From: Longimicrobiaceae bacterium
GTDB lineage: Bacteria > Gemmatimonadota > Gemmatimonadetes > Longimicrobiales > Longimicrobiaceae
NCBI GenBank assembly: GCA_035707865.1
Contig: DASSTO010000009.1
Coordinates: forward strand, 56,736 to 120,735
Reading direction: 5' to 3'
DNA length: 64,000 bases
Part shown: positions 17,587 through 55,242 of the stretch, piece by piece
Layout of the letters: each line of letters opens with the position of its first letter
How positions within the stretch are numbered: position 1 is the stretch's first letter
Program-made: the position numbers and the translations under genes
Notes under the pieces: model-generated
Told to the model about the DNA's origin: nothing
The model's input: the letters and a program-made list of their open reading frames with translations, nothing else
The model's database searches: none

Positions 17587-17651
17587 TCGTATGCGGGATC
17601 GGGAATGCTCGGCCACCGGGGCGGAGAGCTCACGGCCTCGTGGTTTCACCT

Positions 17652-22544: not shown

Positions 22545-23471
22545 TCACCCCCGCGAGCTCTGCTTCCGGGCGTACATCCGCTCGTCGGCTTCGGCGAGCA
22601 GGTCCTGGAGCGCCATCGGCTGGTCGGGGTCGAAGTAGGCCGTGCCCACGCTCAGGGAGAGCGGGTAGGGAGCCGCCGAGGTGGCGCGCTGCTCCTCGAG
22701 GATGGCCTGGAGCCGGTCGGTGAGCAGCTCGGAGCGGTTCTCGTCCGTCTCGATCGCCAGCACCGCGAACTCGTCGCCGCCGAGCCGGCCGATCAGGTCC
22801 GTGCTCCGGAAGCAGGTCCGCAGCAGCGCGGCCGCTTCCTGCAGCGTCGCGTCGCCGGCCTCGTGCCCGAGCTCGTCGTTGATCGTCTTCAGCAGGTCCA
22901 CGTCGGCGTAGATGAGCACCGCGCCGCGGCGATTCCGCAGCGAGAGGTTGAGCTGGTGCTCGGCCATGTGCAGGAAGCCGCGGCGGTTGTACGCGCCGGT
23001 GAGCTCGTCCTCGTAGGCCAGCGTGCGCAGGAGCTCCTCGGCGCGCTTGCGGTGCGTCAGGTCGGTGAGCATGCCGATGACCACCGGCGCCGGGTATCCC
23101 GGCAGGTCGGCAAGGTGCGCGTCGTGTTGGATCCACAGCGTACGGCCGTCCTTGGCGCTGATGCGGTACTCGGAGATCAGCGCTGCCCCCATCGTCGAGA
23201 GCCGCGACTGCTCGTTCAGCACCCGGCCCGCGTCGTCCGGGTGGATCTGGTTGAACCAGTCGTGCGGGTTCTCGATCCACTCTCCTGGCGCGAAGCCGAG
23301 CAGTGATTCGAGCTGCGGGCTCACGTAGAGGATGGGGCCGGGCAGAGGAGACTCCGCCACGTAGGCTACGCCCGGGAGGTGGTCGAGGAGCTGTAACAGC
23401 GCTTCGTGTGGAAGTCGATCGGGCATGCGCGGGGCGGGGAAGGGTGCGCCAGCGTCGACGCGGGCCGGCAA
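22545..23471 (-). CDS. PAS-GGDEF diguanylate cyclase
   Basis: 308 aa (alternative ATG at 23426). PAS segment, then RSTD-LIGRL-GGDEF with intact active and inhibitory sites. Confidence 0.9.
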   Translation of the reverse strand: MPARVDAGAPFPAPRMPDRLPHEALLQLLDHLPGVAYVAESPLPGPILYVSPQLESLLGFAPGEWIENPHDWFNQIHPDDAGRVLNEQSRLSTMGAALISEYRISAKDGRTLWIQHDAHLADLPGYPAPVVIGMLTDLTHRKRAEELLRTLAYEDELTGAYNRRGFLHMAEHQLNLSLRNRRGAVLIYADVDLLKTINDELGHEAGDATLQEAAALLRTCFRSTDLIGRLGGDEFAVLAIETDENRSELLTDRLQAILEEQRATSAAPYPLSLSVGTAYFDPDQPMALQDLLAEADERMYARKQSSRG

Positions 23472-31033: not shown

Positions 31034-31128
31034 CATCCGGAGCGGTTGCACCCGCGGAAGCTCCGTGCGCCACACCCGGTTCCGGGTGTGGCGCACGCGT
31101 ATCCTCCGCCCCCGGCCCCGGCGGCCGC

Positions 31129-33528: not shown

Positions 33529-33615
33529 GGTTGGATGCTTGAGGCCAGCCGGGAACGGTCATCACCGCCGAGCGTCGTCCACGCTCCCGGTCATGCAGGA
33601 TGCGCCGCCGGTTTC

Positions 33616-33630
33616 GCAAGTCGAAGGCCA
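33616..33630 (-). promoter_or_regulatory. sigma-54 (-24/-12) promoter candidate
   Basis: The minus strand reads TGGCCT-TCGAC-TTGC with exact GG-N10-GC spacing. The -12 GC lies ~88 nt upstream of the Wzc-like ATG (33528). Confidence 0.45.
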
Positions 33631-34152
33631 GCCCGCGGGCATGCGGAGCGGACCCGGAAACCATCGGGAACCGCAGTCGGCGACAGGGCTTTCTGCTCTC
33701 GGGCGAGGGTCCGGCGCGGTGTGTCCGGGGGCGGGGGCAATTCCCTGTGGCAGTGACGCGACACTGCGGCGTTGCGGTAAAACTACACGTGACACGCGCT
33801 TCCACGCAATGCGCTGCGAGGCGCGATCATGGCGGCGTTGTGCATACCATGGAATTGCCTTACTTTTCGCGTCGCCCGGGGGCGCATCGCACCCGTTATC
33901 CGCGTGCAGAATGTCGCTGCGGGGCTCGCGTTTCCCGGCCTTTTCCGAGGTTGTCCAGCGCTTCGCCGCGGCGGTCGGTCCGTTTCCCTTTCGCGCGTTT
34001 TGCGTCGGATCGGTCCGATGTGTCTTCCCGAACTGGTTCCGTCGTGCTCCCGCAGGCCCCGTCGGCTCTCTCGCCTCGCGTCTCGCCTCGAGGTCCTTCC
34101 GTGCTGCACCCGCTCGGGGTCACCGGCCCCGTCTCGAGCGGAGGCGCACGCG

Positions 34153-34779
34153 ATGAAATCGGTGCTGCGGGTCGCGCGCGTTCCGGACCCCTGTTCCATC
34201 GAGGGCTCGGAGGCGGTGCCGTCCGTGCACGAGCTGCGCGCGCGGATCTCGCGGTCGGACCCGACGCTCGACCCCGGCCAGCCGGCGTTCCGCGCGGCGG
34301 TCGTCCTGCTCGCCGCGCGCCACGTCGGGCAGAACGTGGACCGGCTCGCCCGGTATACTCGGGTAGCGCGCGGGGAGCTGGCCCGCTTCGCCCGCCGGCT
34401 GTGCGACAACGGCGTCTGGCGAGGTTCCAGGACTCACTGTCTCTGGCACCCGGACGAGGAGCTGGGCGCGTTCTTCTGGGCCGACGTGGAGATCGCCCTC
34501 GGCCGCATGTGCCGCCGGGTGAGCGAGGGCTTCACGGAGTGGGCTCCGGCCGGGCACTGGAACAAGTCGTACGACTTCGTCTCGCCGGCTGCCGCTTCGT
34601 CGCCTTCCGTCCTCTACTACGATCGTGGTCCGGAGCCCACTCCGCCGGTCGCCGCGGACCCCGTGGAGCGGCCTCCGGCCGCGCAGCCCTCGTCACCGCT
34701 CCCACGGCCTCCGCGCGAGTCCCCGCGCGGCCGGGGCGTCGGCGCGGAGATCTTCCCCGGTGCGACGTGGCTCGGTTGA
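34153..34779 (+). CDS. hypothetical protein
   Basis: 208 aa from ATG 34153. The first ~150 aa have a diverse composition (W, C, F, H, D, E), followed by a Pro-rich tail. Lies immediately upstream of the sigma-54 activator gene. Confidence 0.5.
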   Translation: MKSVLRVARVPDPCSIEGSEAVPSVHELRARISRSDPTLDPGQPAFRAAVVLLAARHVGQNVDRLARYTRVARGELARFARRLCDNGVWRGSRTHCLWHPDEELGAFFWADVEIALGRMCRRVSEGFTEWAPAGHWNKSYDFVSPAAASSPSVLYYDRGPEPTPPVAADPVERPPAAQPSSPLPRPPRESPRGRGVGAEIFPGATWLG

Positions 34780-34814
34780 GACGGGCCCGTCGCTTCGACT
34801 TCACCCTGCTCTGA

Positions 34815-36278
34815 GTGCGCCCCGTGGACGAGTCCTTCCGTAAGGTCCTGATCGTCGAGGACGAGGCCAGCCTCCGCGAGAGCTGCGTCAGCGTGCTCCG
34901 ACACGAGGGCTACGACGTCAGCGCCGCCGGCCGGGGCGACGAGGCACGCGACCTCCTGCAGCGCGCGCCCTTCGACATCGTCCTCCTGGATCTGCACATG
35001 CCGCAGGTCTCCGGCATGGAGCTGCTCCGGATCTGCTTGCAGACGCACCCGGAGACGCTGGTCATCCTGATGACGGGGCAGCCGGACGTGGAGTCCAGCA
35101 TCGAAGCGCTGCGCGCCGGTGCCTGGGACTACCTGCCGAAGCCGTTCACCGCTGCGCACCTCCAGGTGCTCCTCGGCCGCGCCCGGCACACGCTCATGCT
35201 CTCGCAGCGCGCGCAGGACGAGAGCACCCGTCTCAACGAGCAGCACGGTCACAGCAGCTCGTCGACGCTGCTCGGGTGCTCCCCGGCGTTCGTGAACATG
35301 ATCCGCCTCGCGGAGAAGGTGGCGCGCACCGATGCATCCGTCTTCCTCACCGGGGAGAGCGGGAGCGGGAAGGAGGTCATCGCGCAGTTCATCCACCATC
35401 ACAGCCGCCGCAAGTCGCGCCCCATGGTCGCCGTCAATTGCGCCGCCCTCCCCGAGACGCTCCTCGAATCGGAGATGTTCGGCCACGTGAAGGGCGCCTT
35501 CACCGGCGCCGTGCGCGACAAGCCCGGCCTCCTGGAGACCGCGGACGACAGTACCTTCTTCCTGGACGAGCTGACGGAGATGGGCCAGTCCGTCCAGGCG
35601 AAGCTGCTCCGGGTCATCCAGGACGGAGTGGTGCGGCGCGTCGGGAGCGAGGTGACGGATGCCACGGTGAACGTCCGCTTCATCGCGGCCACCAACCGCG
35701 ACCCTCGCGAGGCGGTCGACGAGGGCATCCTGCGCAAGGACCTCTACTATCGCCTCTCCGTCGTTCCCATTCGAGTGCCGGCGCTCCGGGACCGCATAGA
35801 GGACATCCCCGTGCTCGCCAAGCACTTCCTCGCCGTCTACTGGAAGCGGCACCGGGACCGGACGGCCGCGCTGCCCACCTTCTCGGCCGCCGCGCTGCGC
35901 GGGCTGCAGGAGCGCCCGTGGCCCGGGAACGTGCGCGAGCTCCAGAACGTCATGGAGCACGCCGTGGTCCTCCTCGAGCCCGGCTCGGAGATCGGGCCGC
36001 AGGACATTCCCCACCTCGAGGGCGCGAACGGGGACGTGGGCGCACGCGGCGGCCTGCTCAACTGGAACGCGCTCGCGGCCGGCCTCGACGGCGAGTACCA
36101 CGAGGTGCGCGAGCGGGTGATCGCCGAGTTCGAGCTCCAGTATCTCACCCGATTGATCGATCAGGCGGGAGCCAACATGTCGCGTGCGGCGAAGATGGCG
36201 GGGGTGGACCGGACCACGCTCTATCGCCTGATGGACAAGCACGGTCTGCAGCGAGACACGATCATCAAGGCGCACTGA
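34815..36278 (+). CDS. sigma-54-dependent response regulator (NtrC family; PEP-CTERM-system PrsR-like)
   Basis: 487 aa, GTG start. REC (ILIVEDEA-type VLIVEDEA, VLLDLHMPQVSG), AAA+ (GESGSGKEV, ESEMFGH, GAFTGA, FLDEL) and a C-terminal Fis-type HTH (RAAKMAGVDRTTLYRLM). Confidence 0.9.
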   Translation: MRPVDESFRKVLIVEDEASLRESCVSVLRHEGYDVSAAGRGDEARDLLQRAPFDIVLLDLHMPQVSGMELLRICLQTHPETLVILMTGQPDVESSIEALRAGAWDYLPKPFTAAHLQVLLGRARHTLMLSQRAQDESTRLNEQHGHSSSSTLLGCSPAFVNMIRLAEKVARTDASVFLTGESGSGKEVIAQFIHHHSRRKSRPMVAVNCAALPETLLESEMFGHVKGAFTGAVRDKPGLLETADDSTFFLDELTEMGQSVQAKLLRVIQDGVVRRVGSEVTDATVNVRFIAATNRDPREAVDEGILRKDLYYRLSVVPIRVPALRDRIEDIPVLAKHFLAVYWKRHRDRTAALPTFSAAALRGLQERPWPGNVRELQNVMEHAVVLLEPGSEIGPQDIPHLEGANGDVGARGGLLNWNALAAGLDGEYHEVRERVIAEFELQYLTRLIDQAGANMSRAAKMAGVDRTTLYRLMDKHGLQRDTIIKAH

Positions 36279-36321
36279 CGCCGCGCCTTCCGCTTTCCAC
36301 CGACTACAGGCGAACAGGCCC

Positions 36322-37389
36322 GTGCCGGATCCCTCGCATCCTGTCTCGCCCCCGGCGCTGAGAGCCGCCGAGCGGGATCTCCTCCAGGAGATCGCCGATC
36401 GCGCTACGCTCTGGGGCGACCCGGACGAGTTGCGACGACGGCTGCGCGCGACGGTCGAGGCGATCGAGGAGGGCGGGCGTTCTCCCTGTCGCCCCGACTG
36501 CTCCGCCCTGGAGGTCGCCAGCTTCCACGGGATCCTGGAGCAGTTGCGGGCGCGGACGGTGGAGATCTGGTCGTGCTCCGATCCCGCGCCCGATCCGTCG
36601 GAGATGATCGCCCTGCTCCGCTCCATGGAGCGGATGCAGCAGAACCTCCAACCTCGAGACGCGCACGACTCGCTCTCCTCCCTCCTGGCGCTCGTGCGCG
36701 GGCCGGAGATGCTCTTCGAGTTCGCGCACGACCTCCGGTCCCCCCTCACCAGTATCCTCTTCCTCGTCGAGACGCTACGGCGCGGAGGCAGCGGTGAGCT
36801 GAATTCGCTCCAGCACCATCAGCTCGGCATCGTCTACAGCGCGGCCCTCAGCCTCATCTCGATGGCCGGCGACGTCCTCGACCTCTCACGCGGTGGCGAG
36901 CACCTCGCCCAGAAGGACCCCGCCGCGTTCTCCATCGCCTCGGTCTTCGAGTCCGTTCTCGACCTCGTCCGGCCGATGATGGATCAACGGGCGGTGGAGC
37001 TGCGCTCCGAATCGCCCGAGCACGACTCCCGAATGGGCTATCCGGTGGCGCTCGGTCGGGTGCTCCTCAACCTCACCACCAACGCCCTCAAATCCACCGA
37101 CCGCGGGTTCGTCGAGCTGGCCGCCCGCGACACCGTGGGCGACGTCGTGGAGTTCTCCGTGCGCGACTCGGGGCGCGGGATCGATCCCGAGGTGATCCCG
37201 ACGCTCTTCGAGCCCTTCCAGTCGCGCGGCGGCATTCAGCGCATCAGCTTCTCCAGCGCCGGCCTCGGCCTCTGGATCTGCCGCAGGCTCATCCGCGCGA
37301 TGGGCGGCGAACTCGCCTTCGAGACCGCGCCCGAGCAGGGAACCCGCTTCCACTTCGAGCTGCCCCTCCCCTCCGCTCCGCTGGTCTGA
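36322..37389 (+). CDS. soluble sensor histidine kinase
   Basis: 355 aa, GTG start, no TM helix. H-box FAHDLRSPLTSI. N/G boxes NLTTNALKST, DSGRGI, GLGLWICR. Confidence 0.85.
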   Translation: MPDPSHPVSPPALRAAERDLLQEIADRATLWGDPDELRRRLRATVEAIEEGGRSPCRPDCSALEVASFHGILEQLRARTVEIWSCSDPAPDPSEMIALLRSMERMQQNLQPRDAHDSLSSLLALVRGPEMLFEFAHDLRSPLTSILFLVETLRRGGSGELNSLQHHQLGIVYSAALSLISMAGDVLDLSRGGEHLAQKDPAAFSIASVFESVLDLVRPMMDQRAVELRSESPEHDSRMGYPVALGRVLLNLTTNALKSTDRGFVELAARDTVGDVVEFSVRDSGRGIDPEVIPTLFEPFQSRGGIQRISFSSAGLGLWICRRLIRAMGGELAFETAPEQGTRFHFELPLPSAPLV

Positions 37390-37611
37390 TCGGGGATCTC
37401 TCCCGCACTTGTTGCGTCCCCCCCACACTGGTGGTCCAGCCGCTACGTTCCCGATTTCCCCGCCGGCCGACGCACTGATTCGCTAAACCATATTCTCGAA
37501 AGAAATTACAGAACTGCTCGCCGCTCCCTGCTGCGAGAGCACGCGCGTTGCGTTATCCTGGGCGCCGAAGCAAGGTGTTCTCGCGTTCAATCGGTTCCCG
37601 GAGCAAACCGT

Positions 37612-38379
37612 ATGAATCCTGCAGCAGACGTGGTGGTGCGCCAACGAGAGGAAGGCGAACTGGTCGGTTACGAGGTCGCCGCACTCACGCTGAATCCCAT
37701 GCCCGCCCGCCCGCCGCGATGGGTGGACTGGACGGCCCAGGGCGTTCTCGACCTCCGCCGCGCCATCAACGTGGTCGTCGCTGCGGTAGCGCTGATCCTC
37801 CTCTCTCCGCTCCTGCTCCTGATCGCCGTCCTGGTGAAGCTTAGCTCGCCGGGCCCCGTCATCTACCGCCAGACCCGCGTCGGGATCGACCGCCGCAGGG
37901 GAGAGAACCCGTACTGGCAGCTGCGGAGGCGCGTGGACTACGGTGGGCGTCTCTTCACGATCTACAAGTTCCGGACGATGCGCCCGCAGGCGGGCCCCAC
38001 GCACGAGGTGTGGGCGCGGCCGGACGACGATCGGGTGACGGCGGTGGGCCGCGTTTTGCGGAAGTACCGCCTCGACGAGCTCCCGCAGCTCGTGAACGTG
38101 CTGAAGGGTGACATGAACATCGTCGGGCCGCGCCCGGAGCAGCCCAGGATCTTCATGGACCTGCGCGAGCAGATCGGGGGCTACGCCGACCGGCAGCGCG
38201 TGCTGCCGGGAATCACGGGCTGGGCTCAGATCAACCAGAGCTACGACACCTCGATCGACGACGTGCGTCGGAAGGTGCGTTACGACCTGGAGTACATCCA
38301 TCGGCAGTCCACCCTGCAGGACCTCCAGATCCTGATGCGGACCGTGCCGGTAATGCTGTTCAAGAAAGGAGCTTGGTGA
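37612..38379 (+). CDS. undecaprenyl-phosphate sugar-phosphate transferase (bacterial sugar transferase family, priming enzyme)
   Basis: 255 aa. One TM helix, then SSPGPVIYRQTRVG, YKFRTM, DELPQLVNVLKGDMNIVGPRP. Preceded by an AT-rich 170-nt spacer. Confidence 0.9.
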   Translation: MNPAADVVVRQREEGELVGYEVAALTLNPMPARPPRWVDWTAQGVLDLRRAINVVVAAVALILLSPLLLLIAVLVKLSSPGPVIYRQTRVGIDRRRGENPYWQLRRRVDYGGRLFTIYKFRTMRPQAGPTHEVWARPDDDRVTAVGRVLRKYRLDELPQLVNVLKGDMNIVGPRPEQPRIFMDLREQIGGYADRQRVLPGITGWAQINQSYDTSIDDVRRKVRYDLEYIHRQSTLQDLQILMRTVPVMLFKKGAW

Positions 38380-39266
38380 GCACAGTCGCAGTCGCCACAC
38401 CGGTCGAGCGCGAGCGGGCCGCCGCGGCGGCGAGCCGCGGAAGGGCGGTGCTCCCGTGGGTAGCCACGGGAGCCGCCTTTCTGGTGCTTTTCGCAGGTCC
38501 CATGGCGGATCTGGCGAAGCAGTGGTGGACGGACCCGAACGCCGGGCACGGCCTCCTGCTCGCCCCGATCGCCCTCTACCTCGCGTGGCGCACCGGCGTG
38601 AGGCCGGATGCGAAGGGCCAGCCGGTGCTGGGGCTGTGTCTGCTCGTGGTCTCGGTGCTCCTGCGCTACGTCGGAGCGCTCGCGGCCGAGCTCTTCACCA
38701 TGCGCACGTCGCTGGTGGGCGCCATCGTCGCGCTCATCGTCTTCGCGTGGGGCGCGCGCCAGCTCGTGCGCTGGTGGCTCCCGCTGACGCTCGTCGTGCT
38801 CTCGGTCCCGCTGCCGACGGTGGTGCTGAACTCGGCGGCCTTCCCGCTGCAGCTCGAGGCGTCGAAGATGGGAGCCGCGCTGCTCGCGTGGCGACAGATC
38901 CCGGTGCTGCTCGATGGGAACGTGATCCGGCTGCCGGGGCACACGCTCTTCGTCACCGAGGCGTGCAGCGGCCTGCGGTCGCTGGCCGCGCTCGTCGCCC
39001 TGGGCGTGCTCATCGCCGGCCTCTGGCTGAAGAAGCCGCCGGTGCGCCTGCTGCTGATCGCCGCGGCCATCCCGGTGGCGATCCTGCTCAACGGGATCCG
39101 GGTCTTTCTCACGGGCTTCCTGGTCTTCTTCGTCGACCCGAAGCTGGGCGAGGGCTTCATGCACCTGACCGAGGGCTGGATCATCTTCGTCTTCGCCTTC
39201 GCCATCCTGGGCGGCCTCGCCTGGGTGCTGGTGCGCCTGGAGCGGCTGTGGGGGAGGGCGGCATGA
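38373..39266 (+). CDS. exosortase (EpsH/Xrt family)
   Basis: 297 aa (TTG 38373, or GTG 38376 overlapping the upstream TGA). Polytopic membrane protein with the catalytic triad context TEACSGLRSL, LLNGIRVFLTG, HLTEGW. Confidence 0.9.
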   Translation: MVSTVAVATPVERERAAAAASRGRAVLPWVATGAAFLVLFAGPMADLAKQWWTDPNAGHGLLLAPIALYLAWRTGVRPDAKGQPVLGLCLLVVSVLLRYVGALAAELFTMRTSLVGAIVALIVFAWGARQLVRWWLPLTLVVLSVPLPTVVLNSAAFPLQLEASKMGAALLAWRQIPVLLDGNVIRLPGHTLFVTEACSGLRSLAALVALGVLIAGLWLKKPPVRLLLIAAAIPVAILLNGIRVFLTGFLVFFVDPKLGEGFMHLTEGWIIFVFAFAILGGLAWVLVRLERLWGRAA

Positions 39267-39907
39267 GCACGCGACTGATGAGCTGGGCTCCCGCTTCGGT
39301 GCTCCTCGTGGGCGTGCTCGCGGTCTCCGGCGGCATCCGCGACCAGGTGAGCATGCCGCTGCGCGCTCCGCTCGCCACGAGCATCCCGACGCAGCTGGCG
39401 GGATACAGCGCGCGCGATCTCCCGATTTCGGAGGCGGAGCAGCGAGTCGCCGGCATGGACAGCTACGTGCTTCGCGAGTACACTGCACCGGGTGCCGCGG
39501 CGGCGGCCTTCTCCGTGTACGTGGGCTATTACCAGCGGCAGTACCAGGGCCACACGATCCACTCCCCCAAGAATTGCCTGCCGGGGGCGGGGTGGGAGCC
39601 GCTGGTGGCGGCGGTGCAGACGATCTCCGGTCCTCGCGGCCCGGTGCCGGTCAACCGGTACCTGATCGCCAACGGGCCGGCGCATGCTCTGGTGCTCTAC
39701 TGGTACCAGGGCCGGGGCCGGGTGACCGCGAACGAATACCGGGTCAAGTGGAATCTGCTCCAGGACCAGGCGATCCGCGGCCGGAGCGACGAATCGCTGG
39801 TGCGGGTGGTCGTCCCGGTGACCGGGAGTGAGCAGGAGGCGGACAGCCTGGCGGTGGAGGTGGCACAGCGCCTGCTTCCCGCCGTCGGCCGGGCACTTCC
39901 CAGCTGA
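39263..39907 (+). CDS. EpsI-family exosortase-associated protein
   Basis: 214 aa. ATGA overlap with the exosortase stop. N-terminal anchor, then ...YVGYYQRQYQGHTIHSPKNCLPGAGWE...LVLYWYQGRGRV..NEY..K, the EpsI pattern. Confidence 0.8.
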   Translation: MSTRLMSWAPASVLLVGVLAVSGGIRDQVSMPLRAPLATSIPTQLAGYSARDLPISEAEQRVAGMDSYVLREYTAPGAAAAAFSVYVGYYQRQYQGHTIHSPKNCLPGAGWEPLVAAVQTISGPRGPVPVNRYLIANGPAHALVLYWYQGRGRVTANEYRVKWNLLQDQAIRGRSDESLVRVVVPVTGSEQEADSLAVEVAQRLLPAVGRALPS

Positions 39908-40084
39908 GTGAGGGCCGAGCCATGAGCATGGACCATCGCGACAACCTCAGCCGCGCACCGCCGACTCTGCAGGCCCCATCCCGCAGCCGATGGGAAGGAG
40001 GTGGCGAACCGGAGTTCTGAAAAGCGCCGCCACGCCACTCATCCATGAGAGGCAGTTTCGGGTACCCTCACTCAGGGAAGACAC

Positions 40085-40801
40085 ATGTCAAGAGGCAGAC
40101 TCACATGGTCGTACGCCAAAGGCTTCGCGGCCCTGGCGCTTACGGCCGCTGCGTCGCTCGTCACCGCAGGTGGTGCGAGCGCGCAGATATTCATCATCGG
40201 CAACGCCACGGGCTGCTTCGGCCTGGGCTGTGTGCCTGCCGAGGCGGCGGCGACCGTTGTCAACGGCGTCCCGCTCAGCTACACCAGCCTGGTGCCGACC
40301 GACTTCACCGGCATCACCGCCGGCGGGCAGCTCGCGATCAACACGACGGGCACTTCGACGACCGGTAACTTCGGGAAGATCAGCGTCGGTACCGCACTGT
40401 CGAACAAGACGATCAGCTCGCCGTTCTCGTTGCTGGTCTCCTTCGGTAACCCGCTGACGGCGGACCAGAGCTTCACGGCGCTGATCAGCGGCGTCGTCCA
40501 GTCTCTCGGTACCGGCGGGATCACGCTGGACTTCAACCCGGCGGTCTCCGGGCCGGCGAACATCAACTACACGACGGACTGGCAGTCGTTCTTCGATCCG
40601 CTCAGCGGTAGGAGCGGCATGCTCCGCACCACGGCCAACGGTACGTTCATCCCCTCCGGTGGAGATGGCGAGATCGCGGGCCTGATCGAGGTGGCGAGCG
40701 TGACTCCCGAGCCCGCTTCCATGATGTTGCTCGGAACGGGTCTCTTCGGCCTCATCGGAGTGACGCGTCGCCGTCGCAAGCAGCAGGTCTCTCTCACGTA
40801 G
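40085..40801 (+). CDS. PEP-CTERM sorting-domain protein
   Basis: 238 aa. Signal peptide ...TAGGASAQ. C-terminus SVTPEPASMMLLGTGLFGLIGVTRRRRKQ. Confidence 0.85.
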   Translation: MSRGRLTWSYAKGFAALALTAAASLVTAGGASAQIFIIGNATGCFGLGCVPAEAAATVVNGVPLSYTSLVPTDFTGITAGGQLAINTTGTSTTGNFGKISVGTALSNKTISSPFSLLVSFGNPLTADQSFTALISGVVQSLGTGGITLDFNPAVSGPANINYTTDWQSFFDPLSGRSGMLRTTANGTFIPSGGDGEIAGLIEVASVTPEPASMMLLGTGLFGLIGVTRRRRKQQVSLT

Positions 40802-40911
40802 TCGAGGCGCTTCAGCTGGCTCCGCGGTCGGCCGTGCCGATCGCGGAGCTGGTGGGCGAGGCGCAGGGGGCCGGGCACGCTCGTGCCGCTCGCAACTCAT
40901 TCCGGACATCG

Positions 40912-41472
40912 ATGAACTACAGTTCTCTGGACCGCGGTGGCCTGCGACATCTCGTCGGGCCGCTGTACGCCACGGCGGTGATGCTCGTCGTGATCCCGCT
41001 CTCGGACCTCGGCGGGGCGCTCGGCTGGAAGATGCTCCCGCACGCGATCAACTGGCGAACCGGCGCGGTCGGGCTGTTCAGCGGCACCGTCCTCACGCCG
41101 GCGCTGGGGCTCGTGATCGCGGTCATCACCGCATCCCTCTTCGGCCACCGGTGGGCGCAGCGGGTTCTCACCGTCGTCGTCGGCCTCGCCGCCCTGGTAC
41201 TCTTCGCCATCCTGGCGGGCTTCATCCTCGACGCCATCCAGCTCCGGGCGATGGTGGCGGACGCGACGATGCGCCACTCCTTCACCGCCGCGGTCGTCAA
41301 GGCGACGATCAACCTCGTCGTCGCCGCCGTGACCCTCGCGATCGTCTGCGTCGGCGCCTTCCGGGCGGGGCGGCAGCGCGACCGGGCCGAAGCCGCCACC
41401 AAGCGCCCGGAGCCAGCGCCGACCCCCCTGCTGAGAACGCCACAGCGCCCGCTGCCCGAGAGCGGCGCGTGA
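40912..41472 (+). CDS. hypothetical 4-TM membrane protein
   Basis: 186 aa from ATG 40912. Four clear hydrophobic helices and a basic/Pro-rich tail. Confidence 0.55.
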   Translation: MNYSSLDRGGLRHLVGPLYATAVMLVVIPLSDLGGALGWKMLPHAINWRTGAVGLFSGTVLTPALGLVIAVITASLFGHRWAQRVLTVVVGLAALVLFAILAGFILDAIQLRAMVADATMRHSFTAAVVKATINLVVAAVTLAIVCVGAFRAGRQRDRAEAATKRPEPAPTPLLRTPQRPLPESGA

Positions 41473-41981: not shown

Positions 41982-42080
41982 GTTGCTGCTCAGAGCAAAC
42001 CCACCGAAAGGCGGGGACGCAGAGTCAAGGGGCTACAGCGGAGGGTGCTTCTCCGCCACGCTCGCCTGGCCGCCAGCGAC
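41982..42080 (+). ncRNA. c-di-GMP-I (GEMM-I)-like riboswitch aptamer, copy 1
   Basis: GUUGCUG-CUCAGAGCAAACC-CACC GAAA GGCGG-GGACGCAGAGUCAAGGGGCUAC-AGCGGAG(GGUGCUU)CUCCGC-CACGCUCGCCUGGCCGC-CAGCGAC. Matches the Vc2-type core, with a GAAA hairpin and a 7-bp closing helix. See findings. Confidence 0.8.
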
Positions 42081-42082
42081 GT

Positions 42083-42112
42083 ACTCCTTTGCCCCGGTGG
42101 TGGCAAAGGAGT
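42083..42112 (+). promoter_or_regulatory. anti-SD / decoy-SD hairpin (expression platform candidate)
   Basis: ACUCCUUUGCC (42083-42093) pairs perfectly with GGCAAAGGAGU (42102-42112). CUCCUUUG is also complementary to the true RBS CAAAGGAG (42214-42221). Confidence 0.5.
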
Positions 42113-42227
42113 CAGCGCTGGCGGCCTTTTGCGTTCCAGCGCTCCACAATCCACGCAGATCGATCGTCGCGGGAGGCGGGCCAATCAGGGTCCCCTCGAA
42201 TCATCCGTCCTTCCAAAGGAGAGCCTC

Positions 42228-44729: not shown

Positions 44730-46691
44730 ATGTGTGGAATCTGCGGGCTTTTCTCGTACGGTAGAGTGGCGGAGGACGGTGCGGCGCACGTCGTCCGGAT
44801 GCGCGATGCGATGGAGCACCGCGGGCCGGACGACGCGGGCCTCTACCAGTCCGCCGACCGGCGCGTCGTGCTCGGGCACCGGCGGCTCAGCATCGTCGAC
44901 CTCTCGCCCGCCGGCCACCAGCCGATGAGCAACGAGGACGGAACGGTGTGGATCGCCTTCAACGGGGAGATCTACAACCACGCCGAGCTCCGGCCGGCGC
45001 TCGAGGCGCGCGGGCACCGCTACCGCTCGCGCTCCGACACCGAGACGCTCCTCCACCTCTACGAGGAGCACGGTCCGGAGATGCTCCCGCTCCTGCGGGG
45101 GATGTTCGCGTTCGCGATCTGGGACGCGAACGAGCGCCGGCTCTTCCTGGCCCGCGACCGCATCGGGATCAAGCCGCTCTACTACACCTTCGCGGGCGGG
45201 CGCTTCCTCTTCGGCTCCGAGATCAAGGCGCTGCTCGCCCACCCGGCGGTGGAGCGCGACCTCGATACCGAGGCGCTCTACCATTACCTCTCGTACTACA
45301 CCACGCCTGCTCCCCGCACGATGTTCCGGGGCGTATCGAAGCTCCCGGCGGGGCACTTCATGCTGGTGGACGAACGGGGGGAAGCTACGGTTCGCCGCTG
45401 GTGGGACGCCGCCGACGCGCCCGCCCCCGACTCCACCCTGCTCGCGGACGAGGACACGGTCGCCGGCGAGGTGCAGCGGCTGCTGGGGCAGGCCGTGCAG
45501 GAGCGCCTCATGGCCGACGTGCCGTTCGGCGTCTTCCTCTCGGGCGGGGTGGATTCGAGCGCGATCACGGCGCTGGTGCGCCGCATGCACGACGGCCCCG
45601 TGCGCACCTTCTCCGTGGGCTACGCGGACGCGCCGGAGCACGACGAGCTCGGGCCGGCGCGCCGGGTGGCGCAGCTCCTCGGCACCGACCACCACGAGGT
45701 GGAGATCGACCACGACGACCTCGTCGCCTACGTTCCCGAGCTGATCCACTCGCAGGACGAGCCGCTCGCCGACTGGGTGTGCATCCCGCTTTACTACGTC
45801 TCCAAGCTGGTGCGCGACTCGGGGACGATCGTGGCGCTGGTGGGGGAGGGGAGCGACGAGCAGTTCGCGGGCTACCGGCACTACCTGCGCTACCTGCGGT
45901 TGCAGCGCGGCGCCTGGTCGGCGTACGGGCGGCTGCCGGGCTGGGCGCGCAGGGGCGCGCACCGCCTCGGCGAGCCCGCCCTGCGCCGCGCGAACTTCCC
46001 CCGCGAGATCCGTGAGCTGGTGCGCCGCGCGGCGATGGACGAGCCGCTCTTCCTGAGCGGTGCGGTCGCCGCGTGGGAGACCGACAAGCGGGAGATGATG
46101 TCGGCGCGGATGCGCTCGGGCGAATGGGCCTCCCTCAGCAGCGTGCCCGTAGCCCAGGCGGCGGCCGCTCACTTCCGCTCCCGCCGCCCCGGCGCGGACT
46201 TCCTGGACGGCGTCACCTACCAGGAGCTTCAGCTCCGGCTCCCCGAGCTCCTCCTGATGCGCGTGGACAAGATCACCATGTCCACTTCCATCGAGGCGCG
46301 GGTGCCCTTCCTCGACCACCGGCTGGTGGAGTTCACGGCGCACGTCCCGAGCGCGATGAAGATCCGCGGCGGCCGGACGAAGCACATCCTGAAGCACGCC
46401 GTGCGCGACCTGCTCCCCGCCGACGTGATCGACCGGAAGAAGCAGGGCTTCAGCGCGCCGGTCAAGGAATGGTTCCGCGGTGAGCTGGCGGGTTACGCGC
46501 GCCGCTCCATCCTGGAATCGCGGCTGCGCGAGCGCGACCTGTTCGACTACGACGTGGTGAGCAACATGCTGGAGATGCACCGCACGGGGCGGCGGAACTA
46601 CGACACGCTGCTCTGGAGTCTCGTGAACCTCTCACAGTGGTACGACGGGTGGATCGCCTCTGAGCCCGAGAGGGCGCTGGCGGCGGTATGA
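44730..46691 (+). CDS. asparagine synthase (glutamine-hydrolysing) family amidotransferase, paralogue 1
   Basis: 653 aa. N-terminal nucleophile MCGI, HRGPDD, and PP-loop FLSGGVDSS. Confidence 0.9.
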   Translation: MCGICGLFSYGRVAEDGAAHVVRMRDAMEHRGPDDAGLYQSADRRVVLGHRRLSIVDLSPAGHQPMSNEDGTVWIAFNGEIYNHAELRPALEARGHRYRSRSDTETLLHLYEEHGPEMLPLLRGMFAFAIWDANERRLFLARDRIGIKPLYYTFAGGRFLFGSEIKALLAHPAVERDLDTEALYHYLSYYTTPAPRTMFRGVSKLPAGHFMLVDERGEATVRRWWDAADAPAPDSTLLADEDTVAGEVQRLLGQAVQERLMADVPFGVFLSGGVDSSAITALVRRMHDGPVRTFSVGYADAPEHDELGPARRVAQLLGTDHHEVEIDHDDLVAYVPELIHSQDEPLADWVCIPLYYVSKLVRDSGTIVALVGEGSDEQFAGYRHYLRYLRLQRGAWSAYGRLPGWARRGAHRLGEPALRRANFPREIRELVRRAAMDEPLFLSGAVAAWETDKREMMSARMRSGEWASLSSVPVAQAAAAHFRSRRPGADFLDGVTYQELQLRLPELLLMRVDKITMSTSIEARVPFLDHRLVEFTAHVPSAMKIRGGRTKHILKHAVRDLLPADVIDRKKQGFSAPVKEWFRGELAGYARRSILESRLRERDLFDYDVVSNMLEMHRTGRRNYDTLLWSLVNLSQWYDGWIASEPERALAAV

Positions 46692-49195: not shown

Positions 49196-51091
49196 ATGTG
49201 TGGAATCGCGGGATTCGTCGGGCGGGAGTGGTCACGCGAGGCGAGCGCGGAGGCGCTGCGGCGCATGTGCGACGCCATCCGCCACCGCGGGCCGGACGAC
49301 GCGGGCTACTTCCTGGCGCCCGGCGTGGCGCTCGGGATGCGCCGCCTCAGCATCATCGACCTGGGCGGGGGGCACCAGCCCATCGGGAACGAGGACGGGC
49401 GTATCCAGATCGTCTTCAACGGCGAGATCTACAACTACCGCGAGCTACGCGAGGGTCTGCTGCGGAGCGGCCACCGCTTCTCCACGCATACCGACACCGA
49501 GACGATCCTGCACCACTACGAGGCGCGGGGCGACCGCGTGGTCGACGACCTGCGCGGGATGTTCGGCTTCGCCATCTGGGACGCGCGCCGGGAGCGGCTC
49601 CTCCTCGCCCGCGACCGTCTGGGGATCAAGCCGCTCTATTACCGGGAGGGCGACGGCGGAGTGGCCTTCGCCTCCGAGCTGAAGTCGCTCCTCGCTCTCC
49701 CGGGCGTGCCGCGCGAGATCGACCCCGCCGCGCTGGCGGACTACCTCGCGCTCGGCTACGTGCCCGAGCCGGCGTGCATCTTCCGCGGCATCCGCAAGCT
49801 CGAGCCGGGGCACACGCTGAGCTGGAGCCGGGACGAGGGCGTGCGCGTCGCGCGCTACTGGTCGCCCTTCCGGCCCGAGGACGCGACGATCGGCGAGGAG
49901 GAGGCGGTGCGCGAGCTGCGGCGGCTCTTCTCCGAGGCCGTCCGCTACCGCCTCATCGCCGACGTGCCGCTCGGCGCCTTCCTCTCCGGCGGGACCGATT
50001 CCTCCGCGGTCGTCGCCGAGATGTCGCGGCAGATGGACCGGCCGGTGCAGACCTTCTCGATCGGCTTTGCCGAGCCGGAGTTCAACGAGGCGCCGCACGC
50101 TGCGGCCGTGGCGAAGGCGCTCGGCTCGGACCACACCGAGCTGATCGTACGCCCCGACGTCGATTCGCTCCTGGAGCAGATCATCGTCGCCTTCGACGAG
50201 CCCTTCGCCGACTCCTCGGCGATTCCCACCTTCCTGGTCTCGCAGCTGGCGAGCAGGAGCGTCAAGGTCGCGCTCTCGGGAGACGGGGGAGACGAGCTCT
50301 TCGGCGGGTACACGCGCTACCTGGACCTGATGCGGCGCGACCACCGCCTCCCCGCTCCCGCGCGCCACGCGCTCTCCGCGCTCGCCCGCCGGCTGCCCCA
50401 CTCCGCCTACGGCCGCAACCGGCTGCTGGAGCTGGCGCGCTCCCCGCACGGGCGCTACGCCGGGATGGTGGCCCATGCGCTCGCCCCGGAGGAGGGCGGG
50501 ATCGCCGCGGCGGGCGTCGCCGCGGCCGGGCACGATCTCGATTCCCTCCTGCGGCGCTGGTTCGACGATACCCCGGAGCGCGACCCCGCCACCCGCGCGA
50601 GCTTCGTCGACCTGCAGAGCTATCTCCCGGGCGACATCCTCACCAAGGTGGACCGGATGAGCATGGCGGTCTCGCTCGAAGCGCGCGTCCCGCTGCTGGA
50701 TCACCCCATCGTGGAGTTCGCCTCCTCGCTGCCCGCCCGTCTGCGCTTCCGGGAGGGAAAGGGCAAGTGGCTCCTGCGCCGGGCCATCGAGGACCTGGTG
50801 CCTCCGCTGGTGCTGCAGAAGCCGAAGCAGGGCTTCGGCGTTCCGCTGCGGCTCTGGTTCCGAAACGAGCTGCGGGGCCGCATCGACGACCTCCTGCGTC
50901 CGGATTCGGCCGTGTACGCGTACGTGGACCGCGCCGCCGTCAGCCGCGTGGTCCGGGAGCACCTCGCGGGGCGGCGCGACCACAGCGCGCAGATCTGGAA
51001 GCTGCTGGTGCTCCACGTCTGGCTGCAGACGCCGTCGGCGGCGCAGGTGGAGAGCAGCCCCCGGTCGACCTTCGCACTGGAGAGGGCCTGA
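49196..51091 (+). CDS. asparagine synthase family amidotransferase, paralogue 2
   Basis: 631 aa. MCGIAG, HRGPDD, FLSGGTDSS. Confidence 0.9.
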   Translation: MCGIAGFVGREWSREASAEALRRMCDAIRHRGPDDAGYFLAPGVALGMRRLSIIDLGGGHQPIGNEDGRIQIVFNGEIYNYRELREGLLRSGHRFSTHTDTETILHHYEARGDRVVDDLRGMFGFAIWDARRERLLLARDRLGIKPLYYREGDGGVAFASELKSLLALPGVPREIDPAALADYLALGYVPEPACIFRGIRKLEPGHTLSWSRDEGVRVARYWSPFRPEDATIGEEEAVRELRRLFSEAVRYRLIADVPLGAFLSGGTDSSAVVAEMSRQMDRPVQTFSIGFAEPEFNEAPHAAAVAKALGSDHTELIVRPDVDSLLEQIIVAFDEPFADSSAIPTFLVSQLASRSVKVALSGDGGDELFGGYTRYLDLMRRDHRLPAPARHALSALARRLPHSAYGRNRLLELARSPHGRYAGMVAHALAPEEGGIAAAGVAAAGHDLDSLLRRWFDDTPERDPATRASFVDLQSYLPGDILTKVDRMSMAVSLEARVPLLDHPIVEFASSLPARLRFREGKGKWLLRRAIEDLVPPLVLQKPKQGFGVPLRLWFRNELRGRIDDLLRPDSAVYAYVDRAAVSRVVREHLAGRRDHSAQIWKLLVLHVWLQTPSAAQVESSPRSTFALERA

Positions 51092-52748: not shown

Positions 52749-54623
52749 ATGTGCGGCATCTGCGGTAGCATTCGCCTGTGCGGGCCCACCACGCCGGAGG
52801 ACGATCGGGTCGTCCGCGCCATGATGCGCAGTCTGGAGCATCGGGGCCCGGACGGGCAGGGGATCTGGTCGGACGACGAGGCGGTCCTGGGGCACCTTCG
52901 CCTCGCGATCATCGATCTCGCGGGTGGTTACCAGCCCCTGCTCAACGAGACCGGGCGGATCGGCGTCGTCTTCAACGGCGAGATCTACAACTACCGCGAG
53001 CTGCGCGACCAGCTCCGCGCCGCCGGGCACCGCTTCCGGACGGAGAGCGACACCGAGGTACTGGTGCACGGCTACGAGGAGTGGGGCGACGCGCTGCCGG
53101 AGCGCCTGCGCGGGATGTTCGCCTTCGTGCTCCGGGACGGAGAGCGTCGGCGCACGCTGCTCGTCCGCGATCGCCTGGGAGTGAAGCCGCTCTACTACCT
53201 CCGCTCTCCGGCCGGGGGAACGCTACGCTTCGCGTCCGAGATCAAGGCGCTCTTCGCGGATCCCCACGTCCCGCGGGCGCTCAATGCCGGCCGGCTCTCC
53301 GAGTATTTCGCGTTCCGCAGCATCGTCGGCGAGGAGACGCTCTTCGAGGGCGTCCGCGAGCTGGAGCCGGGGACGCTCATGGTGGTGGAGGACGGCCGCT
53401 GCTCGGTGCGGAGCTACTGGTCGCCGGAATCGGCAGTCGGCGCGACCGCCGCTGACATTGCCGGAGGGGGCCGTGAGCTGCTCGTGGACGCCGTACGGGC
53501 GCGGCTGGTGAGCGACGTCGCGCTCGGGACGATCACCAGCGGCGGACTGGACTCGAGCCTGGTGAGCGCCATCGCGGCGGAGGTCGCCGGAGAGGCCATC
53601 GACACCTTCTGCGTCGGCTTCTCCGATCCCGCCTACGACGAGCGGCCGTTCGCGCGTGCGGTCGCGGAGCGCATCGATTCGCGGCACCACGAGATCGTCG
53701 TCTCGCCCGAGGACCTGGTCCGCGAGCTCGACCGCCTGACCTGGGCGCACGACGAGCCGCTCACGCATCCGAACTCCATCCCCATGCACCTCCTCTTCCG
53801 GGAGGCGAAGGAGCGCCAGCACGTGACGGTGCTGCTCTCGGGGGAGGGCGCGGACGAGGTGTTCGGGGGCTACGAGTGGTACTCGGTCGCTCACCGGCGG
53901 GCGTCGCTCCGGCGCGTTCCCGGGCTGCCGACGCTCGCCCGCTGGCTCCCCGGGCGCCGCTTCGCCACGCTGCGGCGCGTGCTCCACCCCGACTACCTGC
54001 TCGTCTCCAACGCGGTCTCGCGGCCCTCCGAGGTCGCGGCGCTGTGCGCGGGCGACCCCGTGGCCACCCGGCGCGAACGCTGGCCCCGCGACGCCGGCGA
54101 GGAGGGGCTCTTCGTCTACGATCAGCGCACCTACCTCGCCCCGCTGCTCCAGCGCCAGGACCGGATGAGCATGGCCGCGGGGCTGGAGGCGCGCGTGCCC
54201 TTCCTCGACCACGCACTGGTCGAGTGGGCGAACGCGCTCCCCATGCGCACGAAGCTGCCCGGGGGGAGCCGGAAGGCGCTGCTGAAGGCGCTCGCGGCCC
54301 GCTGGCTCCCGGAGAGCATCGTACACCGGAAGAAAGTGGGGTTCGCGATGCCCCTGGGGGCGTGGATGCGCGGGGGCGGCCCGCTCGCGCGGCGGGTGGA
54401 CGAGCTACGCGATCCTCAGGCGTTCGTCCAGGGGGTGGCGCGGGCGGGGGCGGTGGACGCGTTGGTCCGTGAGCACGCCGCGGGCGCCGACCGAACCGAC
54501 CTGCTCTGGTCGCTCCTGGCCCTCGAGCGGTGGGCGAGCGTCTTCCTCGGTCCGGCGCTCCGGACCGAGGAGCTGCCGGGGAGGAACACGGGGCTCGTGC
54601 GGGCCGTCTCCAGTCCCTCCTGA
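52749..54623 (+). CDS. asparagine synthase family amidotransferase, paralogue 3
   Basis: 624 aa. MCGICG, HRGPDG, ITSGGLDSS. Confidence 0.9.
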   Translation: MCGICGSIRLCGPTTPEDDRVVRAMMRSLEHRGPDGQGIWSDDEAVLGHLRLAIIDLAGGYQPLLNETGRIGVVFNGEIYNYRELRDQLRAAGHRFRTESDTEVLVHGYEEWGDALPERLRGMFAFVLRDGERRRTLLVRDRLGVKPLYYLRSPAGGTLRFASEIKALFADPHVPRALNAGRLSEYFAFRSIVGEETLFEGVRELEPGTLMVVEDGRCSVRSYWSPESAVGATAADIAGGGRELLVDAVRARLVSDVALGTITSGGLDSSLVSAIAAEVAGEAIDTFCVGFSDPAYDERPFARAVAERIDSRHHEIVVSPEDLVRELDRLTWAHDEPLTHPNSIPMHLLFREAKERQHVTVLLSGEGADEVFGGYEWYSVAHRRASLRRVPGLPTLARWLPGRRFATLRRVLHPDYLLVSNAVSRPSEVAALCAGDPVATRRERWPRDAGEEGLFVYDQRTYLAPLLQRQDRMSMAAGLEARVPFLDHALVEWANALPMRTKLPGGSRKALLKALAARWLPESIVHRKKVGFAMPLGAWMRGGGPLARRVDELRDPQAFVQGVARAGAVDALVREHAAGADRTDLLWSLLALERWASVFLGPALRTEELPGRNTGLVRAVSSPS

Positions 54624-54668: not shown

Positions 54669-54696
54669 TTGACAGCCCCGGATATTCTCGTAGGTT
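54669..54696 (+). promoter_or_regulatory. sigma-70-like promoter TTGACA-N16-TAGGTT
   Basis: -35 at 54669-54674 and -10 at 54691-54696. Lies ~24 nt upstream of riboswitch 2. Confidence 0.45.
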
Positions 54697-54719
54697 GCGT
54701 CCGGACATCACCAACACCA

Positions 54720-54814
54720 CGCTGTTCAGAGCAAACCCGTCGAAAGGCGGGGACGCAGAGTCACGGGGCTACGGGGGAGAAGCTGCTCTTCCCACGCCCG
54801 CCGGGCCGCCAGCG
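54720..54814 (+). ncRNA. c-di-GMP-I (GEMM-I)-like riboswitch aptamer, copy 2
   Basis: CGCUG-UUCAGAGCAAACC-CGUC GAAA GGCGG-GGACGCAGAGUCACGGGGCUAC-...-CGCCCGCCGGGCCGC-CAGCG. Same core as copy 1, with compensatory stem changes. Confidence 0.8.
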
Positions 54815-55010
54815 ACCTGATCCGCCGCGTTCGCGCGAGATCCAGGTAGCGGCGGCCTTTCCGTTTATATGACCCCTTCGGTTCGCGCGGACGACTACAG
54901 TTTTCGCCGCGCGCTGCCGACACTGTGATGGCGAGGGGGTGTGGAACGCCAGCCCGGGTCTCCCCTGTGGGACTCCGCGCTGTCCTCGACACCTCCTCGA
55001 CAACTCACAG

Positions 55011-55100
55011 CGCTGCTCAGAGCAAAGCCGGCGAAAGCCGGTGGCGCAGAGCCACGGGACTACAGCGGCGCGAGCCGCCATGTCCGCCGGGCCGCCAGCG
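55011..55100 (+). ncRNA. c-di-GMP-I (GEMM-I)-like riboswitch aptamer, copy 3
   Basis: CGCUG-CUCAGAGCAAA-GCCGGC GAAA GCCGGU-GGCGCAGAGCCACGGGACUAC-AGCGGC(GCGA)GCCGC-CAUGUCCGCCGGGCCGC-CAGCG. Confidence 0.75.
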
Positions 55101-55242
55101 ATTCGGCCGATGCAGAGAGACCCTCTCTCCCATCGGCAGGACCTGGCGGCTTTTTCGTGCCCCTGGTCCTCAGGCATTCACGGCCGCGGACCCCGACAAC
55201 TGGTCGGGGTCGGGCCAAAGCAATAACTTGAGGAGGAAGCTG

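Follow-up and report, generated by a model that had tools for sequence, protein, structure and literature searches.

A leader with two GEMM-I aptamers

On the + strand of Longimicrobiaceae contig DASSTO010000009.1, the 5' leader of a gene for a 625-amino-acid (625-aa) lipoprotein carries two riboswitch aptamers of the GEMM-I fold, one behind the other, each with a predicted expression platform. The stretch of DNA analysed, referred to here as the window, is 64,000 nucleotides (nt) long, has a G+C content of about 70% and was scanned over its whole length with the Rfam models (cmscan) at gathering thresholds (35 for RF01051). A third riboswitch of the same type was found further upstream; its aptamer is numbered 1, and those of the leader 2 and 3. 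The leader elements, the gene that follows them and the third riboswitch are listed below, with key residues given by their equivalents in known aptamers of the fold.

54669-54696, + strand: promoter-like element, with -35 TTGACA at 54669-54674, a 16-nt spacer and -10 TAGGTT at 54691-54696
54720-54814, + strand: aptamer 2, GEMM-I fold; RF01051 match 54720-54813, 55.4 bits, E 4e-8; P1 54720-54724 with 54810-54814; A54730 (G20-equivalent), A54757 (A47-equivalent), G54758 (position 48), C54809 (C92-equivalent)
55011-55100, + strand: aptamer 3, GEMM-I fold; RF01051 match 55011-55099, 55.8 bits, E 3e-8; P1 55011-55015 with 55096-55100; A55021 (G20-equivalent), A47 at 55048, G48 at 55049, C55095 (C92-equivalent)
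55231-55236, + strand: Shine-Dalgarno (SD) sequence AGGAGG of the regulated gene, which runs from the ATG at 55243 to the stop at 57120 and encodes the 625-aa lipoprotein
41984-42130, + strand: third riboswitch, of the same type with A at position 20 and G at position 48 (A20/G48); aptamer 1 at 41984-42078, A41994; RF01051 match 41984-42077, 51.4 bits

An earlier reading of this DNA, made from the letters alone (the sequence-only reading), had described two c-di-GMP-I-like aptamers starting 291 nt apart in one leader. The covariance-model search places both regions well above the gathering score, its match coordinates bear out the spacing, and the tandem is confirmed as a real feature whose architecture had been correctly recognised. 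Both matches are full-length, covering model positions 1-87 of 87, and aptamer 2 folded by itself adopts the consensus structure as its minimum-free-energy fold. Membership of the GEMM-I fold is established computationally on two counts, the RF01051 score and a covarying secondary structure. The pair also has the attributes of a same-class tandem: two aptamers on the + strand, a single leader, a gene-free gap and a predicted platform for each. Between the stop of the preceding asnB gene (54623) and the lipoprotein ATG (55243), no open reading frame (ORF) with coding-type G+C at third codon positions was found.

The promoter-like element had likewise been proposed from the sequence, and it is the only such site in the window: TTGACA-N16-18-TANNNT has a single match over both strands, with 0.04 expected and at least one match in 4 of 100 shuffles. 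The uniqueness of this match next to aptamer 2, from which its 3' end is 24 nt distant, gives the promoter call statistical support. A stricter promoter scan of the window left the element unflagged because TAGGTT agrees with TATAAT at only three of six positions. From its position, transcription would start at about 54703-54705, and the leader is probably roughly 540 nt long. Promoter and terminator scans flagged neither a second consensus promoter nor an intrinsic terminator between the leader elements, and about 140 nt separate the terminator of the first switch from aptamer 3.

At the other end of the leader, the AGGAGG-N6-ATG start is present as previously described and opens a reading frame with a lipobox-containing N-terminus. 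A CCUCCU hexamer immediately 5' of aptamer 3 (54992-54997), whose complementarity to the SD had been pointed out, is present, but the anti-SD pairing is unsupported and was discarded: the hexamer occurs 70 times in the window and lies 234 nt from the SD, with a whole riboswitch between them.

Expression platforms and their recurrence in relatives

Each of the three window aptamers is followed by a terminator-like element.

54803-54858, + strand: terminator hairpin of switch 1, the element extending to 54870; its 5' arm (54803-54813) is the P2/C92/P1 3' strand of aptamer 2, and its tail reads UUUCCGUUUAUAU
55090-55155, + strand: terminator of switch 2; outer stem of GCCGCCAG (aptamer 3' strand) with CUGGCGGC (55143-55150), inner hairpin 55105-55137, run of five U residues (U5) at 55151-55155
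42068-42126, + strand: terminator of the third riboswitch, then UUUU; fold -51.3 kcal/mol, z -6.7

In all three leaders the 5' arm of the terminator is the aptamer's own 3' strand, GGCCGCCAGCG, which comprises the C92-equivalent and the 3' half of P1, and a U-rich tract follows. The terminator of switch 1 (-37.1 kcal/mol, z -2.8) gives a predicted fold of -73.6 kcal/mol as compared with -60.1 kcal/mol when P1 is enforced; for switch 2 (-41.7 kcal/mol, z -4.0, none of 200 shuffles being as stable) the corresponding values are -79.0 and -63.9 kcal/mol. Across the three leaders, the predicted terminator folds are 13-21 kcal/mol more stable than the P1-enforced folds. Since the two structures compete for one strand, aptamer and terminator are mutually exclusive, which gives the switches ON polarity. 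Both leader riboswitches would thus be transcriptional ON switches arranged in series, although their polarity in vivo is here a prediction from folding.

The sequence-only reading had noticed the elements behind both aptamers, and overlooked that each terminator borrows its 5' arm from the aptamer. A terminator-like element does follow aptamer 2, but in the minimum-free-energy fold its GCGGCGG (54849-54855) pairs with aptamer residues 54806-54813 and not with 54822-54828 as had been thought. Behind aptamer 3 the hairpin and U5 tract are present, the hairpin described (55107-55136) being merely the inner part of the stem 55090-55151.

The proposed mechanism is as follows. Without ligand, the GGCCGCCAGCG strand would pair with its downstream complement, a long intrinsic terminator would form and transcription would stop; a cyclic dinucleotide bound during transcription would lock P1 and C92 within the aptamer, block the terminator and allow RNA polymerase to read through. 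From a start near 54703, aptamer 2 would fold first. If it caught ligand before the 54849-54858 arm emerged, the polymerase would pass the weak U-tract; otherwise the terminator would form. A second decision would follow some 290 nt later at aptamer 3, with its stronger, U5-tailed terminator. Full-length lipoprotein mRNA would require both switches to be ON, so that output would be the product of two occupancy functions, and the need for two successes would reduce basal leak and steepen the response. The tandem may also filter transcripts that run on from the preceding operon, which aptamer 1 would in turn gate.

A steeper, more digital output is the accepted reading of homotypic tandems (PMC9481103), and such a response has been shown for the triple c-di-GMP-I tandem of Bacillus thuringiensis (PMC9481103); by analogy, the present tandem would respond digitally too. 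The suggestion that a GACGC versus GGCGC difference might give the two aptamers different set-points lacks support; that column varies freely across 106 relatives.

These relatives come from a pattern scan of one genome per species, in which R (A or G) was allowed at the G20 position and which gave at least 119 stretches (loci L002-L120); the counts that follow hold among the matches listed. The sources are overwhelmingly metagenome-assembled genomes (MAGs) of Gemmatimonadales and Longimicrobiales, with a few in Nitrospirota, Eisenbacteria and Acidobacteriota. In an alignment of 106 distinct aptamers of the clade, paired cells make up 93.3% and compensatory changes are seen in 17 of 27 pairs, P1 included. 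None of 500 shuffles reached this level, slid controls were 23-51% paired, and the GAAA loop is invariant. A clade covariance model built for these relatives, which scores aptamers 2 and 3 at 93.9 and 99.6 bits, was run together with an nhmmer profile on the listed loci and found 146 aptamers in 120 sources. Tandems occur in 15 of the 120, with 17 adjacent pairs no more than 450 nt apart.

The platform design recurs as well. An exact complement of the aptamer 3' strand, of at least 6 nt and followed by a T-rich tail, lies downstream of 98 of the 129 listed A-type aptamers (those with A at position 20), and complements of at least 7 nt were found for 94 of them as against 11 with shuffled arms. 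The terminator-type ON design therefore appears to be the norm for the clade. Big_2 domains are encoded by the first ORF downstream in 48 of 80 listed cases, tandems included; on this sequence evidence, A20/G48 aptamers are abundant in Gemmatimonadota and for the most part precede genes for predicted Big_2 surface proteins.

Larger arrays were also encountered. Locus L102 (1983-2386) holds three A-type aptamers that repeat every 157 nt exactly, L073 (6984-7417) holds two A-type aptamers and then one with G at position 20 (G-type), and L073 as a whole has six aptamers in 8 kb.

In the listed relatives, no fixed distance ahead of the A-type aptamers showed an excess of TTGAC or TAnnTT. A general promoter motif for the A-type clade was rejected, as only a subset of loci shares GTCACGG...TAGnTT. 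In L052, L100, L030, L074, L036 and others, GTCACGG is followed after about 22 nt by (C)CTAGnTTG, which ends about 10 nt before the aptamer and may be a lineage-specific promoter.

The pocket and the identity of the ligand

At all three window aptamers the sites read CAGAGCAAA, with the form CAG-A-GCAAA, whose set-off A stands in place of a G that is conserved and unpaired in the Rfam consensus. The oligonucleotides of the G11A mutant of Clostridioides difficile Cd1 (ATAGGCAAA changed to ATAAGCAAA), whose G11 is stated to be equal to Vibrio cholerae Vc2 G20, taken together with the consensus of the Rfam variant family c-di-GMP-I-GGC (RF03167), map the window A to the Vc2 G20 position. G20 pairs with one guanine of cyclic di-GMP (c-di-GMP), and A replaces it in riboswitches for cyclic GMP-AMP (cGAMP) (PMC9481103). 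The RF03167 consensus GACGCGAAG places A47 as the first base after GC; the window, with GACGCAGAG, keeps A47 and has G at 48, and C92 is kept. Of the contact triad G20/A47/C92 of c-di-GMP-I, then, A47 and C92 are retained and position 20 is A (54730, 55021). The combination of a GEMM-I fold, A at the G20-equivalent and retained A47 and C92 is that of GEMM-Ib.

The designation c-di-GMP-I-like is consequently right for the fold; as a statement about the ligand it is unsafe, because the selectivity position is A rather than G in all three aptamers. By analogy with GEMM-Ib, the A20/G48 aptamers are predicted to accept 3',3'-cGAMP. We lean slightly towards a ligand preference for cGAMP, or bispecificity; c-di-GMP as the sole ligand mattering in vivo stands somewhat short of an even chance, and a small remainder falls to a ligand other than these two. 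The account as a whole, of two independent and complete GEMM-I-fold ON switches in one leader with predicted acceptance of cGAMP, is one that we hold with reasonable confidence.

The purine at position 20 was A in all 129 matches listed, though the search pattern allowed G, and is invariant in all 136 A20/G48 aptamers among the listed genome-derived loci. In an unbiased metagenome sample (loci L121-L240) in which positions 20 and 48 were both left free, the counts were 109 for G20/A48, 13 for A20/A48, 12 for A20/G48 and none for G20/G48. G48 was thus seen only together with A20, for which function or shared ancestry are both conceivable. One A20/C48 aptamer was seen, at L016:6080.

Canonical G20/A48 aptamers are also present in the same Gemmatimonadota genomes as the A20/G48 type: nine were detected among the matches listed, eight of them in hetero-tandem with an A-type aptamer (seven with A then G, one, in L034, with G then A) at spacings of 151-186 nt. 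The hetero-tandems lie upstream of Big_2 proteins, at L048:5346-5619, L020:4669-4915, L076, L085, L111, L068, L073:7139-7417 and L034. The G20/A48 aptamers are mostly without the terminator design, which only one of the nine has, and six of the nine have an SD and ATG 15-21 nt after the aptamer. That a single leader can hold two conserved pocket types, each with its own kind of platform, argues for two separate inputs. Geobacter and Desulfobacca show the same split between G and A, which there separates c-di-GMP from cGAMP recognition (PMC9481103), and on that analogy the A-type aptamers would read 3',3'-cGAMP. The hetero-tandems may then be natural two-messenger AND gates that combine transcriptional with translational control.

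GEMM-Ib riboswitches of Geobacter (such as pilM of G. metallireducens, pgcA/Gs1761 and the omcAHG tandem) are the closest known parallel. They share the GEMM-I fold, A at the Vc2 G20 position, A47 and C92; they are ON switches in which the terminator uses the aptamer 3' strand, including the ligand-pairing C; they occur as tandems in series; and they control extracellular or surface functions, polysaccharide genes among them. The pilM cGAMP riboswitch is a validated ON switch whose terminator sequesters the ligand-pairing C75, and with the cGAMP synthase gene gacA deleted, RNA from the omcAHG tandem is lost by its second riboswitch. The differences are that Geobacter belongs to the Desulfuromonadota and the window to the Gemmatimonadota; that pilM has GGAAAG where G48 is found here; that the lower P1a pair is G-C here and C-G or U-G there; and that the regulon here is dominated by Big_2 surface proteins (as counted above) rather than by cytochromes and pili, with cGAMP binding predicted.

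Other members of the superfamily are less similar. Vc2 and Cd1 share with the window aptamers a match to RF01051, the GAAA tetraloop hairpin, the three-way junction, A47 and C92, whereas the window has A for G20, G for A48 and A.C for the A49-U pair; Cd1 is moreover an OFF switch, unlike the predicted ON switches described here. The orphan pocket variant RF03167 is, like the window aptamers, a high-GC GEMM-I RNA with a purine change in the GCAAAG segment, but its consensus, AAAGGCAAAC...GACGCGAAG, has G20 and G47 where the window has A20, A47 and G48. Membership of RF03167 was rejected, with aptamer 2 at 49 bits below the gathering score of 59 and lacking the G20/G47 pocket. G-type aptamers of the phylum do exceed that threshold: one with G20/A47, at L048:5530-5619, reaches 68.4 bits though it is without the defining G47, as if the RF03167 model responded to a high-GC background like that of Gemmatimonadota no less than to the altered pocket.

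Several points weigh against cGAMP recognition and against strictly serial switching. Firstly, A20 alone is no guarantee of specificity: Vc2 G20A binds c-di-GMP with a dissociation constant (Kd) of 53 nM and cGAMP with one of 120 nM, and bispecific A20 aptamers also occur in nature. Secondly, G48 is absent from the validated Geobacter GEMM-Ib (pilM) sequence. Thirdly, exopolysaccharide, adhesins and GGDEF/EAL genes are classic c-di-GMP biology, and no convincing cGAMP synthase was found within the 64-kb window. Fourthly, ligand and switching of the A20/G48 clade are deduced from sequence and predicted folds. As to the series arrangement, the U-tract after aptamer 2 is interrupted, and given this the terminator of switch 1 may be the weaker of the two; the 291-nt spacing exceeds the usual 150-190 nt and makes a weak internal promoter possible; and the terminator scan found no terminator between the asnB stop (54623) and aptamer 2, where read-through transcripts from the upstream asnB may enter the leader.

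It is from the first group of these points that the most durable alternative draws its strength, namely that both aptamers are ordinary c-di-GMP sensors whose tandem arrangement sharpens the c-di-GMP response, that A20 is a lineage quirk which binds c-di-GMP via a protonated adenine, and that no cGAMP signalling is involved. RF01051 is the best gathering-level match, the G20A mutant demonstrates that A20 RNA can bind c-di-GMP tightly, and the window encodes GGDEF and GGDEF-EAL proteins beside its exopolysaccharide and adhesin locus. Set against this are the invariance of A20 across the clade despite a permissive pattern, the Geobacter and Desulfobacca precedent, and the persistence of G20 aptamers in the same genomes and, in eight hetero-tandem pairs, in the same leaders with another platform, which is hard to explain if the ligand is shared. 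We regard this alternative as a serious contender that nonetheless falls short of an even chance.

A second alternative places the switches out of series: a promoter within 54875-55010 would drive aptamer 3 and the gene, leaving aptamer 2 and its terminator mainly to stop, conditionally, transcription that begins at its own promoter or arrives from the asnB operon. The long gap and period, and the lack of a terminator behind asnB in the scan, are what it would account for. The gap, however, holds neither a TTGACA-N16-18-TANNNT match nor a sigma-70-like site; none of the 17 second-in-tandem aptamers among the listed relatives has TTGAC or TAnnTT upstream; the orthologous gene of another Longimicrobiaceae genome (L021) needs only one switch directly upstream; and full terminators between aptamers are the norm for the tandem class (PMC9481103). 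We consider such a promoter unlikely.

Slightly more unlikely still is that the A20/G48 pocket recognises another ligand, for instance some other cyclic or linear dinucleotide, so that the tandem senses an undescribed signal. G48 adjoins the intercalating A47 and in the metagenome sample accompanies 12 of 25 A20 aptamers but none of 109 with G20, the validated GEMM-Ib sequence does not have it, all 106 aligned sequences show A.C at the adjacent consensus A-U pair, and Rfam holds orphan pocket variants of the fold (c-di-GMP-I-GGC and c-di-GMP-I-UAU). Yet the three direct contacts, A20, A47 and C92, are exactly those of the cGAMP pocket, the G48/A20 association may reflect shared ancestry in one closely related clade, and the A.C mismatch is also found in some G20 aptamers of the same phylum. 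That one of the two aptamers is a decaying, functionless duplicate is very improbable, for although the L021 ortholog has only one aptamer, the Rfam scores of the two are equal, both keep every invariant column of the 106-sequence alignment and a matched terminator, and they differ in P1a and P2b by compensatory rather than disruptive changes, which marks them as old and maintained.

The mismatch itself replaces the consensus A49-U90 pair by A.C in every one of the 106 aligned A-type aptamers (alignment columns 41/94; window positions 54760/54807 and 55051/55093). The U90-to-C change was ruled out as an A-type marker, since C is also found there in some of the phylum's G-type aptamers.

Among the signalling proteins of the window, the - strand at 14584-18249 encodes a 1221-aa GAF-HisKA-PAS-GGDEF-EAL protein with Ser at the PleD-D344/GacA-S348 position (...NRALMIERLS...), which with GGDEF constitutes a Hypr signature. 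In its 120 closest homologues the residue at this position is R (44), G (24), E (17), K (9), S (7), A (6) or others, and because the position is unconstrained among them, the Ser is of doubtful significance and does not count as evidence for a cGAMP synthase. A second GGDEF protein (22545-23471) has the canonical E at the specificity position.

Tandem GEMM-I architecture as such is already well known, from tandem c-di-GMP-I RNAs, tandem GEMM-Ib in Geobacter and the pilM-type ON design. Tandem c-di-GMP-I is the most numerous tandem riboswitch class, with 347 doublets and 12 triplets (Sherlock et al. 2022, PMC9481103). These homotypic tandems (PMC9481103) likewise have two or three same-class aptamers per leader, a terminator for each and often surface or adhesion targets; unlike the window pair, in which both members are A20/G48, the catalogue pools G20 and A20, and the 291-nt period lies at its long end. 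What is less ordinary is the A20/G48 clade in Gemmatimonadota, its Big_2-rich regulon and its hetero-tandems with G20 aptamers. Full-text searching of a collection of papers found no riboswitch or Hypr-GGDEF study in Gemmatimonadota, and A/G hetero-tandems are not among the logic gates of the tandem-riboswitch survey (PMC9481103).

It is the pocket that lends these observations some value: a large, coherent clade in a soil phylum with almost no experimental signalling biology, controlling surface Ig-like proteins and a polysaccharide-active lipoprotein, and paired with canonical G20 aptamers in some genomes. If the A-type aptamers read cGAMP, the window pair is a tandem cGAMP switch and the hetero-tandems are natural cGAMP/c-di-GMP AND gates on one mRNA. 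A preference for cGAMP would extend riboswitch-based cGAMP signalling well past Geobacter and its relatives, and would offer compact ON switches ready for use as well as, possibly, natural logic gates with two messengers. If c-di-GMP is bound instead, A20 is not a reliable predictor of specificity. More tentatively, A20/G48 may form a Gemmatimonadota-wide class that senses 3',3'-cGAMP or another non-c-di-GMP dinucleotide, implying an undescribed second-messenger pathway over Big_2 adhesins and exopolysaccharide remodelling; we rate this wider proposal as possible, at well under an even chance.

The regulated gene and its locus

The 625-aa product begins MVAFSVRRQGRLTVMVPAILLLLSAC and carries the lipobox LLSAC. 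An Ig-like domain (about residues 204-247, a weak match) precedes a C-terminal (alpha/alpha)6-barrel carbohydrate-active domain (about 265-625); Pfam annotation gives weak Ig-like and GH47 matches, and searches of Pfam, NCBIfam and PDB sequences gave no significant match. Because sequence-level searches are uninformative, the functional class is taken from the predicted fold. An AlphaFold (AF2) model from 37 homologues has a predicted local distance difference test (pLDDT) score above 90 over most of 265-625, and Foldseek matches this domain to N-acylglucosamine (AGE) and cellobiose 2-epimerases, GH88/GH105 unsaturated glucuronyl hydrolases, GH76 and alginate lyase at the level of fold (E about 4e-4, TM-score 0.54-0.60 normalised by target). 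The product would be a lipoprotein of the cell surface or periplasm that combines an Ig-like with a polysaccharide-active domain, an assignment at fold level only.

A hypothetical protein encoded by a Longimicrobiaceae (Gemmatimonadota) MAG matches the product at 100% identity, and an identical protein is also found on a Logan contig; a scan of genome contigs with the 625-aa protein confirmed no relatives. An ortholog in Longimicrobiaceae L021 (36% identity, full length) has one A-type aptamer 76 nt upstream, which suggests that control of this gene family by an A-type riboswitch is conserved and that its doubling is lineage-specific.

By Pfam and NCBIfam annotation, the surroundings form an exopolysaccharide region of the PEP-CTERM/exosortase type. 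The genes 3' of aptamer 1 encode, in order, a Big_2 lipoprotein, a GT4 glycosyltransferase, AsnB, a GT1 glycosyltransferase, Wzy_C, AsnB, an acyl-CoA-ligase-like protein and AsnB (ending at 54623); the leader with aptamers 2 and 3 follows this last AsnB, and the 625-aa gene is the last + strand gene of the locus. The features concerned are the following.

29972-41472: PEP-CTERM/exosortase-type components, within which lie a sigma-54 response regulator (34815-36278) and a histidine kinase (36322-37389)
31129-33528, - strand: Wzz/GNVR kinase-like protein
40085-40801: PEP-CTERM protein
about 42229 (ATG) to 43193, + strand: Big_2 lipoprotein gene after the third riboswitch (Pfam annotation)
44730-46691, 49196-51091 and 52749-54623: the three AsnB paralogues of the locus

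Elsewhere in the window, 2912-6337 encodes a further large protein of surface type, 1141 aa long, with Big_2, fn3-like and RCC1-repeat (beta-propeller) domains, upstream of which no riboswitch was detected. The exopolysaccharide cluster itself opens with the third switch, so that three switches stand in series along a possible 15-kb + strand unit.

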